A DNA stretch of 64,000 nucleotides from an uncultured virus (IMG/VR IMGVR_UViG_2061766007_000378). Taxonomy: Duplodnaviria > Heunggongvirae > Uroviricota > Caudoviricetes. The stretch lies in the IMG/VR virus record IMGVR_UViG_2061766007_000378; one strand, written 5' to 3'. Positions 7,163 to 15,097 of this stretch are shown in pieces (the first letter of the stretch is position 1; every line of letters begins with the position of its first letter). The position numbers and the translations under genes are program-made. The notes beneath the pieces were generated by a model. That model was not told the DNA's origin. It ran no database searches and saw nothing but the letters and a program-made list of their open reading frames with translations.

Positions 7163-7314
7163 AAGACGACGACTTCGACATCTCGGTCGCTCTGTCTGGA
7201 ATCGACATGAACCCGAGTACGGTCCGAGTGTACGACTTCAGCACTCCGAAGGGAAGAGTGTTCGTTGAAGTCTGGCCGGGCGGACATATCAAGATCGACA
7301 AGAGCCAGCTATGA
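7163..7314 (+). CDS. Hypothetical protein, C-terminal part (N-terminus at 10033..10164, minus strand)
   Basis: DDDFDISVALSGIDMNPSTVRVYDF...KSQL*; shares DDDFDISVAL with the 10033..10164 fragment; TGA overlaps the VRR-NUC ATG. Confidence 0.6.
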
Positions 7315-7613
7315 AAACACCGGAAAGAAAAGTCAAAGACGAGATCGCAGCGTATCTCCAGAAGAGATCCTCTGCCGGCGACAAGATATACGGCGAAGCC
7401 CGCGAAGCGGGAGGATACACGTATAAGAAAGGCCTACCGGACATTTGGATCGTCTACAACGGAATCCACCTTGAGGTAGAGATCAAGGGCCCCCGGGGGG
7501 TACGCTCTCCGATGCAGATCAAATGGGAGCAGATCTTTAACCGCTTAGGGATCAGATACTGCTGCGTCTCGTCGGTAGAAGAACTCGATACTATACTGAA
7601 AGGAATGGTTTAA
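7311..7613 (+). CDS. VRR-NUC domain nuclease (Holliday junction resolvase-like)
   Basis: PERKVK, GLPDI, EVEIK, SPMQ motifs. Confidence 0.85.
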   Translation: MKTPERKVKDEIAAYLQKRSSAGDKIYGEAREAGGYTYKKGLPDIWIVYNGIHLEVEIKGPRGVRSPMQIKWEQIFNRLGIRYCCVSSVEELDTILKGMV

Positions 7614-9799: not shown

Positions 9800-10022
9800 A
9801 ATTATAATACGCGCGTAAGAAACGGTATACTCACGCCTAGAAAAAATTTTTCGCTCGCGTAAGACTTGCGGGCCCGGAGGGGGAGGGGCCGGTAGGGGCC
9901 GGTATGGAAAATTTTTTGGAAAAATTTCCGGAGGAAATCAAAATTAATTTGTTCGCAATTCGGCAACAACTAAAATTCATTTTATTATTTCCCCTCAAAA
10001 AAGGCCCCTAATTCATATATAT
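9800..10022. other. Non-coding region with G-runs, short direct and inverted repeats; possible genome end or packaging site
   Basis: ggggccggta x2, cgcgtaaga x2, A/T tracts. Confidence 0.35.
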
Positions 10023-10032
10023 NNNNNNNNNN

Positions 10033-10164
10033 CCCAGCCAGAGCGACTGAGATGTCGAAATCGTCGTCGTCTCGCGAGAAGAAGGATGACTTCTTCTTTT
10101 TGCCGTCGTCGATACCGAGATGGTACTTACGCCATTCTTCAGGATTGTTAATAGGGTCTAACAT
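10033..10164 (-). CDS. Hypothetical protein N-terminus (allelic to 7163..7314)
   Basis: MLDPINNPEEWRKYHLG...DDDDFDISVALAG with GGAGG RBS. Confidence 0.6.
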
Positions 10165-10188
10165 AGTTTTTCTCACCTCCTGCAGTTA

Positions 10189-10419
10189 TTATACTATGTA
10201 CCACATATAGCCGTAAGCCGAGGGCTTCGCCCTTTTTAGTACGGCGCTTAAATGACTTCTGATAGAAGCCTGTTTATTGGGAGTTAAGCCGGAAGTGCTT
10301 AACCAAAGAGACGCTTCCAGTACGCTGTTGAATTCAATCTGTCTGTTATTAAGGATGTCGACGGCAAGTAGCTTCTTACAAGCCGCAGTCTTCATCTTCT
10401 CTTTGTCGTATCGTTCTTT
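10189..10419 (-). CDS. NUMOD1 C-terminal part of the HNH endonuclease (allelic inverted copy)
   Basis: Matches 6690-6740 and 6909-7054. Confidence 0.75.
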   Translation of the reverse strand, partial: KERYDKEKMKTAACKKLLAVDILNNRQIEFNSVLEASLWLSTSGLTPNKQASIRSHLSAVLKRAKPSAYGYMWYIV

Positions 10420-10471
10420 NNNNNNNNNNNNNNNNNNNNNNNNNNNNNNNNNNNNNNNNNNNNNNNNNNNN

Positions 10472-10835
10472 AGATAATAAAGAAGATAATAAAATGAAAT
10501 ATAATTGTTAACAAATTGCGAACAAATTAATTAGCTCATTTTCCCCCAAAAGTTGTTCTTTAATAGCTTTTAACTTACGTTTATGCACAGGCGCCTACTA
10601 TATTTCGACCCGTTTTGCCGATTATTATTTCGGCCTTTTGAGGTCTGTTTAATAAACTTTTATTTGCGTTTGAAATTAGTTAATCCTGTAAGACTTTACT
10701 AGACTTTTATTATCTTGTTGTTCAACTTCGTAATATATTATTATTTACATTTAATGCGATACGCGCTATAATATTTATAGAATAAAAATTATTTCTCAAC
10801 CGTTACTTTTAATAAACTTTTATTTACGTTTGAAA
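10472..10835. repeat. AT-rich intergenic region with 28-bp direct repeats; candidate origin
   Basis: tttaataaactttTATTT(g/a)cgtttgaaa at 10648 and 10808; agacttt x2 at 10691/10701. Confidence 0.5.
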
Positions 10836-10844
10836 GGAGTAAGT

Positions 10845-11249
10845 ATGAAACTGTTTTTACTGTCGTGCGGGCACGTGCTCAAGCTCGATTCGAAAAAGGA
10901 TAAAAACGGAAATTATTACGAGATCGTGTCCGGTAAGAGACCTATGTGCGACCGTTGCGGGCAAGGATCGGTGATCGACCGCAAGCTGAAGACCCAGTAC
11001 GACGGGCTCGAAGGACGGTTCGCCGTCTGCGGAGAAAAGAAAGTGCGGTCCTCGTGGCTGCTGCCGGGATTCGTCTACTGTCCGGACGAAGAGAACGACC
11101 GGTTCCTATGGTCGAACAGATCGTACGTCCGCGATACGCACGGAAGCCAGCCCGTCCCAGTATCCGACCTTCCCGGCGTTCCGGAAAAGAAACGGAGACC
11201 CCGTACGGAATGGTTCGAAAAGCTTATCGAAAAAGAAAAGAAAAAATAA
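10845..11249 (+). CDS. Cys-rich (putative Zn-binding) hypothetical protein
   Basis: LSCGH, CDRC; AAGGAG RBS. Confidence 0.65.
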   Translation: MKLFLLSCGHVLKLDSKKDKNGNYYEIVSGKRPMCDRCGQGSVIDRKLKTQYDGLEGRFAVCGEKKVRSSWLLPGFVYCPDEENDRFLWSNRSYVRDTHGSQPVPVSDLPGVPEKKRRPRTEWFEKLIEKEKKK

Positions 11250-11282
11250 TTATTCGTTCGGCTACGGATTATNNNNNNNNNN

Positions 11283-11673
11283 GTTGTGCGGTGGCAAAGT
11301 CAAGCGAAGTTATGTGACGGCAAAGCGAAGTAAGGTAAATTTAGGTAATGTATCGGCAAAGCAATGAACCGCAAAGTAATGCAAAGGAAATGCACTGATT
11401 AGATTCGAACAGTAAAGGCAAGGTAATAAGTGGCGTGGTAAAGGCAAGGCGATGCGTGGCGTTGCATAGGCAAAGTGCAGATAAGTTCAGAAAAGTAGAG
11501 GCATAGTATCGACACGTTATGATTGCTATGAAACGTAACGGTGAAGTTTTGTATCGCGACGGCAAAGCAGGGTTTAGTCATGTAAAGGCGAAGAGAGGCG
11601 TGGTAACGGAATAGAATAGAAATGATATGTCCTGTTTAGGAATAGCCCAGTTAGGAACGGTCCAGAAAAGCAA
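11283..11673 (+). ncRNA. 5-nt periodic NGH-NN repeat array; VIPR-like guide RNA array (5' part lost in gap)
   Basis: By hand parse 72 of 74 pentamers have G at position 2 and none has G at position 3; 13 blocks each start with GG (mostly GGCAA) after one extra base; directly upstream of a RAMP gene. Confidence 0.85.
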
Positions 11674-11716
11674 AAGCAAAAAGAAAGAATTAATAACAAA
11701 AAGAAAGGCAAACAAA

Positions 11717-12310
11717 ATGAAAGAAATCAAAGTTAAACTCACGTTTACGGAACCGATCCTCGGTTCAAGCTCCGGCAACCCCGAACTCCATTCTGAGTTC
11801 ATCGCAAGCAAAGCTCCCGACGCAAAGTCGAGAGAAGAAGAAGTTGAAGCTCTCGGTGCCGACGAGGTCGAGAAGAAAGAGATGACTGTGTTCCCGAGAA
11901 CGGAGGACGGAACCCCGTTTATTTGGGATTATCAGATTCGCGGATTCTTCAAACACGCCTGCGGAATGCTGAAGAGTATCGGCGGCGGAAACGAAAGCGA
12001 AAAGATCAAGGCCCACAAGAAAGTCGTTGACGGAATGGTCTTCGTTAAAGAGAGAAAGATTCCGTTTCATTATGACGGTAAGATCGGAAGTCTGCAAAGA
12101 CCGCTTCGCGGACAGACGGCTCAGGGCGAGAGAATCGCTCTTGCGAACAGCGAGATGATCAATGCCGGCGCAACGATCGAGTTCACGATCCAGATCCTGA
12201 AAGAAGACCTTGAAAACGCCATTTATGAATGGCTTGACTACGGTCAGTTCAACGGGATCGGGCAGTGGAGAAACTCCGGAATGGGAAGATTTACATGGGA
12301 AAAACTTTAA
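11717..12310 (+). CDS. Solitary RAMP/Cas7-like RNA-binding protein (Vipr-like)
   Basis: N-terminal strand KVKLTFTEPILGS, helix YQIRGFFKHAC, SEMINAGATIEFTI strand, C-terminal Gly-rich loop GIGQWRNSGMGRF; RBS AGAAAGG. Confidence 0.85.
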   Translation: MKEIKVKLTFTEPILGSSSGNPELHSEFIASKAPDAKSREEEVEALGADEVEKKEMTVFPRTEDGTPFIWDYQIRGFFKHACGMLKSIGGGNESEKIKAHKKVVDGMVFVKERKIPFHYDGKIGSLQRPLRGQTAQGERIALANSEMINAGATIEFTIQILKEDLENAIYEWLDYGQFNGIGQWRNSGMGRFTWEKL

Positions 12311-12675
12311 AGAATAAATTTTTGAACGAACAAAAAGTATTAAACGGAAAATTTAATATTGAATTACATAAACAAACGTTCATTAATTATCTTGAAGTTG
12401 TCGTTCGTAAGGACGGGACGGTTGAATATGCCGTCCCTTCCCATCAAGAAAAGCTGATCGCTATTGCTAATGAAATGGGATATAATAGAGACTGGTTGGA
12501 TAAGAACTGTCCGAGAGAATATTATTTCAATTTCATGCAGTGGATGTGCAATCTAACGGGATGCGTGTCTTTGTGGTTCGACTATAAAATAAGCCCCGAA
12601 CAAGGAAGAACGCCGGAACAGAACAAAGCGATATGGGAGCTTGTTAAAGCAGAAATTTATAAAGGAGCATTTTGA
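12295..12675 (+). CDS. Hypothetical protein overlapping the RAMP gene stop
   Basis: YLEVVVRKDGTVEYAVPSHQE motif; overlap suggests coupling. Confidence 0.7.
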   Translation: MGKTLKNKFLNEQKVLNGKFNIELHKQTFINYLEVVVRKDGTVEYAVPSHQEKLIAIANEMGYNRDWLDKNCPREYYFNFMQWMCNLTGCVSLWFDYKISPEQGRTPEQNKAIWELVKAEIYKGAF

Positions 12676-12676
12676 T

Positions 12677-12935
12677 ATGCTGTATACGAGATATGTCGTT
12701 AAACTGAAAAAGTATCAGGACTTGATTGAGTTCATGGTTCCCGATGGTGTTAAGTCGGAAGCCGCTACCTATCAGCAGGTGAACGCCGAAACTGGAGAGG
12801 CGAACGCGTCGTTAATCATTTTAATAAATGGCGAAGTTCAATTCATCACTCCGATAGTAGAAATCGAAGTTTATCAGAAGAGCGTCGTAAACGTTGCCGA
12901 TAAACCGCATGAAGAAGACACGGATAAAGATCCGG
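12677..12935 (+). CDS. Hypothetical protein (3' end in gap)
   Basis: AAGGAG RBS, open to the gap. Confidence 0.6.
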
Positions 12936-12985
12936 NNNNNNNNNNACTGATCGACCGGAAAAAAGCATGGTCCAATAAATAACGC

Positions 12986-13017
12986 CGGCTTGGGAACGAT
13001 CGCCTTTGCGGTATAAT
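12986..13017 (+). promoter_or_regulatory. CGGCTT-N20-TATAAT promoter of the periodic array (allele A)
   Basis: cggctt gggaacgatcgcctttgcgg tataat. Confidence 0.75.
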
Positions 13018-13023
13018 TAACTC

Positions 13024-13132
13024 GTAAGATACGGCGACAGCATTGTACCGAAATGTTGGGCGATGGCAAAGCGATGCGAAGTATGGCTTCGGCAAAGTAA
13101 AGCGGAGTGTTGCTAGGGCAAAGTAAAGCGAA
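13024..13132 (+). ncRNA. 5' end of the NGH-NN periodic array, allele A
   Basis: agcat tgtac cgaaa tgttg ggcga t ggcaa agcga tgcga agtat ggctt c ggcaa agtaa agcgg agtgt tgcta g ggcaa..., ends at gap. Confidence 0.8.
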
Positions 13133-13142
13133 NNNNNNNNNN

Positions 13143-14673: not shown

Positions 14674-14903
14674 CGAATTACGAGCTTGTAAAAAAGATGG
14701 ATCCGTTCGACATGGATAACGTGATAACCAAAACGTTCGAACGCTTTATCCGCGAAGGCAACAAGTCTCCGATGAAATTTCTCGACTGGCTGCTGAGCGA
14801 GGCGGATGAGGACTTGAAAAAATATATGCGCTCTCAGATCGAGTTCACTGACGAAGACCTTAAAGCGCTTATCGATAGGAAAAAAGCATGGTCCAATAAA
14901 TAA
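14670..14903 (+). CDS. Hypothetical protein preceding the array promoter (3' end duplicated at 12946-12982)
   Basis: ATGA overlap; both copies end LIDRKKAWSNK. Confidence 0.7.
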   Translation: MTNYELVKKMDPFDMDNVITKTFERFIREGNKSPMKFLDWLLSEADEDLKKYMRSQIEFTDEDLKALIDRKKAWSNK

Positions 14904-14906
14904 CGC

Positions 14907-14938
14907 CGGCTTGGGAACGAACTCCTTTGCGGTATAAT
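14907..14938 (+). promoter_or_regulatory. CGGCTT-N20-TATAAT promoter of the periodic array (allele B)
   Basis: cggctt gggaacgaactcctttgcgg tataat. Confidence 0.75.
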
Positions 14939-14944
14939 TAACTC

Positions 14945-15053
14945 GTAAGATGCAGCAACGGCATTGTACCGAAATGTTGGGTGATGGCAAAGCGATGTGA
15001 AGAATGGCTTCGGCAAAGTAAAGCGGAGTGTTGCTAGGGCAAAGTAAAGCGAA
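14945..15053 (+). ncRNA. 5' end of the NGH-NN periodic array, allele B
   Basis: Same register as 13024-13132 with 7 substitutions. Confidence 0.8.
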
Positions 15054-15097
15054 NNNNNNNNNNAAATAATTAAAGGCGGAAAGAAAGCGAGCGACAA

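Follow-up and report, generated by a model that had tools for sequence, protein, structure and literature searches.

What kind of element is the array of five-base units that precedes a small phage gene, and why does its phase slip by one base at intervals? Both questions arise at 11293..11679 (+) of the window, by which we mean the whole 64,000-nt stretch analysed (IMG/VR record IMGVR_UViG_2061766007_000378). The window is a phage genome with genes for a DNA polymerase, a primase, the terminase large subunit, the major head protein, the tail sheath, and a head protease, and the public runs that contain the stretch are, by their records, bovine gut metagenomes. An earlier note made from the letters alone had proposed that the slips either split a multi-guide transcript or change the skip pattern on the target, and that this grammar could define a distinct subtype. 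The system with which the locus is compared here is VIPR, a relative of CRISPR that silences DNA under RNA guidance and was described in 2026 (10.64898/2026.04.26.720920). As set out in the text of that preprint, VIPR is phage-borne and consists of a lone Cas7-like protein, Vipr, and vrRNAs built of GGY/NN pentamers; it silences rival elements via a gapped code with a 1-nt skip, typically has an accessory vap gene next to vipr, and also occurs with the alternative repeats YNNNG and NNNNG (10.64898/2026.04.26.720920). The accessible text of a further paper reports the motifs WGT/NN and TGH/NN (10.64898/2026.10.21.760802).

The main vrRNA array is composed of about 75 five-base N-G-H-N-N units in 13–14 blocks of 5n+1 nt. 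The blocks start at 11293, 11319, 11355, 11386, 11417, 11443, 11469, 11500, 11540, 11561, 11587, 11608, and 11639 (+). These starts had been named in the earlier note together with lengths of the form 5n+1, and cutting the sequence there bears out both: 13/13 starts are GG (GGC in 9, GGA in 3, and GGT in 1), and the blocks measure, in order, 26, 36, 31, 31, 26, 26, 31, 40, 21, 26, 21, 31, and 35 nt, that is, 21–36 nt plus one of 40 nt. The 40-nt block at 11500 contains a 4-mer, TGAT, and is parsed as 24 + 16. The last block, at 11639, is 36 nt long with base 11674 included, and the array continues to ~11679. Each block has GG(C/A/T) at its start and N-G-Y-A-A plus one base at its end, and the junctions between blocks mostly read G-T-A-A-(A/C) followed by G-G-C-A-A.

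The phase was also read with a strict parser, into which nothing was built except a G every 5 nt and a penalty for 4- or 6-nt steps. The parser divides the array into 74 units, of which 61 are 5 nt, 12 are 6 nt, and 1 is 4 nt long, with the lattice G present in 97% of them. Its score of 82 compares with a mean of 9.5 in shuffles (sd 2.3, max 20, n=300), and the next-best scores in the window, 24, belong to two further, small arrays of this type. The one-base slip was said always to come just before a GG pentamer, and the parse agrees: GG follows 12/12 six-nt steps vs 12/60 five-nt steps, a placement with a hypergeometric chance of 1.8e-7, and a looser parse gives 12/13 vs 12/61 (Fisher 1.3e-6). 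The relaxed NGH motif likewise holds. Among the 48 internal pentamers, position 1 is A in 23, C in 4, G in 11, and T in 10; position 2 is G in 46/48; and position 3 is A in 15, C in 14, T in 19, and never G. Folding of the array RNA does not surpass that of shuffled sequence (z +1.29; 90/100 shuffles fold at least as well), and this lack of structure above chance indicates that it has no hairpin tails of the sort found in the Escherichia phage SUSP1.

The gene downstream, vipr (11717..12310, +), begins 38 nt after the array end on the same strand and encodes a stand-alone 197-aa RAMP protein. By its AlphaFold2 model (pLDDT 80.4, pTM 0.75), the product is small, Cas7-like, and of the Vipr kind. 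The best Foldseek match in PDB is type VII Cas7 (8z4j_J, E 2.1e-8, TM 0.57), after which rank chains of Csm3, Cmr, and Cas7-11; the model has 196 PDB matches at E <= 0.001. The sequence gives sub-threshold matches to Cas7, Csm4, and Cas6 models at the RAMP G-loop region only, a PDB sequence-profile search returns type VII Cas7 at just E 0.06, and neither Vipr nor its two neighbours have a family above threshold in Pfam, PHROGs, NCBIfam, or PADLOC. Homologues of Vipr are numerous: a word-indexed search yielded 6836 proteins at E <= 0.001, which form 1773 clusters at 50% identity, and at least 575 IMG/VR viral stretches carry relatives. The GenBank phage relatives, 51–60% identical, are MT835513.1, MT835520.1, MT839334.1, and MT835477.1, and no others; all four are unannotated uncultured phages from human faecal samples, and no cultured phage with this Vipr clade is present in the GenBank phage records. 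We also aligned a 22-sequence family alignment by hhalign with the presumed SUSP1 Vipr, a 195-aa ORF annotated as hypothetical (KT454805.2 28474-29061(-)) and chosen by locus layout; the match is weak, with 175 colinear columns, 23% identity, E 0.001, and a probability of 21%. The locus thus shows the VIPR traits of a lone RAMP protein, a same-strand 5-nt G array, and a phage genome, with no conserved accessory vap gene beside vipr. As the best explanation, we take 11293..11679 for the guide-RNA array of a VIPR system carried by this phage.

To see the grammar beyond one locus, we collected homologous loci in two rounds. The first comprised 42 viral loci with Vipr relatives 56–73% identical, and the second, via alignment of distant family members, 80 further loci with relatives 42–70% identical to the window protein. 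Arrays were detected by a G-only lattice, as requiring a pyrimidine at position 3 missed most homologous arrays. With duplicates removed beforehand, 104 arrays were counted, 37 distinct ones from the first round (window included) and 67 from the second. Counts by a lenient parser were excluded: it overran into coding sequence, where a G in the first codon position looks like a 6-nt step. A G-lattice array adjoins vipr in 42/42 first-round loci, where the opposite strand reads equally as a C lattice, and 65/67 second-round arrays lie on the vipr strand with a G anchor.

The strand and the neighbouring gene bear on whether a guide array is present at all. The repeat might act at the level of DNA, as iterons or a packaging signal, or be a cryptic coding region; a five-base period alone is no proof of an RNA role, and the repeat is overlapped by mechanical ORFs. 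Coding is ruled out, however, by a period of 5 that slips by one base, and against a DNA-level repeat stand the strand and anchor of the 65/67 arrays, the RAMP gene adjoining in all 42 first-round loci, and the match to the published VIPR anatomy. We regard this explanation as extremely improbable.

The grammar is shared by these arrays. In the first round (37 arrays), GG restarts follow 344/363 six-nt steps vs 472/2178 five-nt steps, four-nt steps number 10, and 326/336 blocks are of 5n+1 length; in the second (67 arrays), the corresponding values are 758/822 vs 1185/4769, 48, and 768/803. Over all 104 arrays, 1102/1185 six-nt steps (93%) restart at GG vs 1657/6947 five-nt steps (24%), and 1094/1139 blocks are 5n+1, with modal lengths of 26, 31, and 36 nt. 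Six-nt steps outnumber four-nt steps 20-fold (1185 vs 58). The comparison across homologues that the earlier note had called for thus finds the slips not randomly placed. A logo of 363 junctions gives, for the last unit, any base, G (1.00), C (0.90), A (0.72), and A (0.74), and then any base, and for the first unit of the next block, G (0.95), G (0.99), H, A (0.61), and W. Hence the family consensus is N-G-C-A-A-N before the junction and G-G-H-A-W after it. Exceptions exist: about 7% of six-nt steps lack the GG restart, including 0/5 restarts in locus L045, and loci L091 and L044 have anchors other than the G lattice. Where other loci show blocks of more than 8 units, these look like artefacts of parsing, with imperfect lattices. 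The suggestion of a distinct subtype was overstated, the grammar being a property of a very large Vipr clade and not of a single locus.

Closely related arrays reveal what the blocks are as units of change. A 29.5-kb contig of run X4, from a related strain in another sample, covers 11283-12310 with 39 substitutions and a single indel, the absence of 26 nt after 11442. We place the missing block at 11443..11468 (+); as 11417-11442 and 11443-11468 are alike (period 26), which of the two the strain lost is ambiguous, and the net difference is one block. Alignments of related arrays, made in three groups, give the same picture. L038 is without one 31-nt block, and L027, L029, L032, and L041 are without blocks 2-5 of L021; the other indels are of 5 nt, or consist in a duplication of 6 nt from which a new 6-nt block arises. 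Between L009 and L011, blocks 1-5, 8, and 10 are colinear and 85–100% alike, and blocks 6, 7, 9, 12, and 13 are at the ~60% background, so that block identity is bimodal. With respect to a CRISPR-like polarity of new blocks, the replaced blocks are 5' in one group and internal in another.

Variable columns in related arrays amount to 60/234 at position 1, 23/234 at position 2, 51/234 at position 3, 59/234 at position 4, 63/234 at position 5, and 8/33 at the extra base. Position 2 alone is protected between related arrays. The eight best-supported array substitutions from runs X4 and X5 include five at position 3, four of which are C/T exchanges.

With the rule kept in 104 arrays and variants differing by whole blocks, the slips appear to be functional boundaries that divide a multi-guide array, as the earlier note had supposed. 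Its other proposal, that a slip changes the skip pattern on a continuous target, finds no support. Under that proposal a filament would cross the junction, the extra base would be one more skipped base, and the guide would read a single long target. Deletion, insertion, and replacement affect a block irrespective of the blocks beside it and would leave a continuously read target scrambled, and near-fixed letters occupy the first and last unit of each block, where guide letters should vary. We consider a continuous guide very improbable.

The leading blocks of L036 (3602-3720) are near-identical to those of L019 (3602-3720), a member of another array group, from which we conclude that guide cassettes are exchanged between otherwise different arrays. 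Such exchange is what one would expect if the 5n+1 spacing merely recorded array growth by recombination of G-bounded cassettes and had no role in the RNA. That history alone seems quite improbable to us as the source of the spacing, for GG is kept at 93% of 1185 junctions, and the preceding G-C-A-A is kept too, among proteins down to 42% identity. Indels preserve the register by involving whole blocks or 5 nt, and a slip of the opposite sign is scarce, with 58 four-nt steps against the 1185 six-nt ones. Together, the conserved junction, the register-keeping indels, and the rarity of four-nt steps point to selection on the junction itself.

What, then, would a junction do? In the SUSP1 complex, according to the text of its description, one repeat is bound per Vipr protomer, the thumb and the G-loop cradle G2, and a pocket in the following protomer receives Y3 (10.64898/2026.04.26.720927). 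Since turnover in the arrays proceeds by whole blocks, which are gained, lost, or swapped, a block most likely represents a single tail-less guide; we hold it probable, with some reserve, that a block is one such guide of 4–8 units and that a junction is the end of one Vipr filament and the start of the next. By comparison with SUSP1, each Vipr protomer would bind one unit, gripping its G and the H after it while the variable letters face the DNA. The six-base junction would break the five-base register, and a filament could for this reason not cross it. In the Y-N-N-N-G frame, the extra base may correspond to the first G of the last repeat, a position that is relaxed here; the leading G of GG would close the upstream guide and double as the first letter of the downstream guide, an overlap of one base. 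Sharing one nucleotide between G-bounded guides makes their start-to-start spacing exactly 5n+1. The precursor is probably co-transcribed with vipr, and is probably split at each junction, the products being short ribonucleoprotein filaments for the silencing of rival phages.

The precursor could instead stay uncut as one long RNA, on which the six-base steps just separate successive Vipr filaments; a dozen short filaments per transcript would then act jointly, for example at several sites of one rival genome. The grammar, the logo, and the block turnover are accounted for equally well by an uncut RNA, and tethering would give avidity to very short guides. No nuclease or ribozyme is apparent at the junctions, Rfam over 10000-13000 giving one chance-level miRNA match and nothing else, and the array lies in the apparent 5' leader of vipr. 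The legend of fig. S18, by contrast, mentions 'individual processed vrRNAs' for the staggered arrays, in which guides overlap by 1 nt (10.64898/2026.04.26.720920), and the junction G-C-A-A-N-G-G is conserved in sequence as well as in length, which suggests a recognised site. We judge an uncut precursor unlikely, while giving it real weight.

By the published NN rule, a guide of 4–8 units specifies 8–16 bases, a seemingly small number for specificity. A bolder idea would ease this constraint, namely that the freed first G of GGY has become a third guide letter and that the G shared at a junction yields competing guide sets from one transcript. If so, the code would have three contiguous target bases per 5-nt unit, and guides of 4–8 units would specify 12–24 bases, not 8–16; a cut would assign the shared G to one neighbour only, and neighbouring guides would be alternative products of one precursor. 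Position 1 indeed varies as much as positions 4 and 5 do, in its composition as well as between related arrays (60/234 vs 59 and 63). Position 3 is nearly as variable (51/234), and supporting targets number 0 in 289 kb. We find the idea improbable.

These 289 kb comprise the window and 36 distinct loci after masking of the arrays, a database too small to decide on guide function. Target patterns were derived from 37 arrays, in one search from the 289 blocks with 5 units or more and in another from the 235 with 6 units or more, and were matched exactly or with 1–2 mismatches, under NN with skips of 0–3, NNN with skips of 0–2, HNN, and reversed reading. Under no rule did targets in these 289 kb exceed unit-order shuffles, a size too small for the result to count against guide function. 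For NN with skip 1, there were 52 exact matches vs 47–79 in shuffles, and 147 with one mismatch vs 159–198.

We also inspected the surroundings of the array. A sigma-70-like promoter match, TTTACA-17 nt-TATAAT, lies at 10744..10772 (+); it fits the consensus, and nothing but the consensus, at 11/12 hexamer positions and is a candidate transcript start for ORF134, the array, and vipr. ORF134 (10845..11249, +) is a cysteine-rich protein of 134 aa without a Pfam, PHROG, NCBIfam, or PADLOC family, and with 0 relatives in the 42 homologous loci it is not a conserved partner of vipr. Upstream of ORF134 is a 33-nt direct repeat (10648-10680 and 10808-10840, 91% identical), which is A/T-rich, has an RBS-like GGAG at its end, and resembles a duplicated regulatory or translation-start region.

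The two small arrays detected by the parser belong to a 196-nt direct repeat whose copies, at 12947..13142 (+) and 14868..15063 (+), are 94% identical. Each copy has a TTGGGA-16-TATAAT promoter-like site (12990-13017 in copy 1, 14911-14938 in copy 2) followed by a small array of the same grammar, with 26-nt blocks led by GGCAA. That of copy 1 occupies ~13023-13132, and that of copy 2 (14944-15053) consists of three 26-nt blocks and the beginning of a fourth. Judged from their sequence, the repeats are extra guide cassettes with putative promoters of their own, 0.7 and 2.6 kb downstream of vipr. Runs of 10 N stand at the edges of all three arrays (11273-11282, 12936-12945, 13133-13142, and 15054-15063), with 14 other N runs in addition. 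The first of these covers the sequence directly upstream of the main array, and in both copies of the 196-nt repeat the N runs hold an equal relative position. Owing to these runs, the true array ends, with the leader and a possible terminator, are unreadable.

Tandem- and direct-repeat scans around the locus detected no CRISPR repeat-spacer array, and Pfam and PHROGs detected 0 Cas families in the 12 neighbouring ORFs. Eight neighbouring window proteins have no relatives in the 42 homologous loci, and no conserved vap was found next to vipr; the sole gene family common to 37/37 distinct loci is vipr. A phage HTH regulator, cI/Cro-like by sequence motif, is located within 3 kb of vipr in 23/37 distinct loci, so the VIPR loci of this clade often adjoin a temperate-phage immunity region. 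Farther upstream, at 7311-7613 (+), a 100-aa ORF matches phrog_93, endonuclease / Holliday-junction resolvase (E 1.3e-11), and has a sub-threshold VRR-NUC match in Pfam. Contigs of the metatranscriptome run X12 contain a 154-nt identical piece in vipr (11789-11942) and short A-rich partial matches, and none on the array. A joint in run X5 that skips 11423-11699 was disregarded, as it occurs in one contig, has a 30-nt side, and falls in repetitive sequence.

Among known systems, the staggered VIPR arrays are the closest in layout. They too have a lone small RAMP gene in a phage, flanked by a non-coding 5-nt array with a fixed G and variable letters, and the 1-nt overlap of G-bounded guides in the fig. 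S18 legend predicts the 5n+1 spacing found here. The present array would fit this layout of tail-less abutting guides whose neighbours share one nucleotide. The likeness is drawn from that legend, and equating the array with the staggered layout rests on arithmetic. The terms 'staggered' and 'hexamer' are absent from the accessible texts of the other VIPR papers.

The type II VIPR system of SUSP1 shares a ~195-aa Cas7-like protein, colinear by the weak profile match, a phage-borne locus, and a 5-nt repeat with an invariant second G. The SUSP1 locus comprises vipr, vap1 next door, and four vrRNAs, whereas no conserved accessory gene is found here. In the published texts its guides are uninterrupted strict GGY-NN runs of 9–16 repeats, each followed by a structured 3' tail with a pseudoknot (10.64898/2026.04.26.720920, 10.64898/2026.04.26.720927); the SUSP1 arrays, read directly for contrast, are likewise uninterrupted GGY-NN runs, each with a structured 3' tail. 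With an N-G-H motif, guides of 4–8 units, and no tail, the main array of the window lacks the guide layout of type II. At about half the length of those already characterised, its guides raise a question of specificity.

More distant are the Cas7 backbones of class 1 CRISPR systems (type VII Cas7, type III Csm3/Cmr4), which include the best structural matches of the Vipr model and likewise place one protomer per fixed guide step, with bases flipped out at each step. They differ in a step of 6 nt instead of 5 nt, and here the guide itself is the tandem repeat; they differ also in that this locus has neither a repeat-spacer array around it nor a Cas family among the 12 neighbouring ORFs.

As the published texts and the fig. 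S18 legend already contain VIPR as a kind of system, the relaxed repeat, and the staggered tail-less layout, the locus is no new kind of system. The texts of the VIPR preprints, figures excluded, do not contain the G-C-A-A-N/G-G logo (slash at the junction), the six-base step, the 4–8-unit guides, or the block-wise turnover, and these are details of a known architecture. They supply a clean rule, backed by counts, by which tail-less VIPR arrays can be split into guides, namely a six-base step at G-C-A-A-N/G-G and blocks of 5n+1, and target prediction for this very large clade of gut and rumen phages requires such a rule. Its arrays evolve by whole-guide turnover, like the turnover of spacers in CRISPR arrays.
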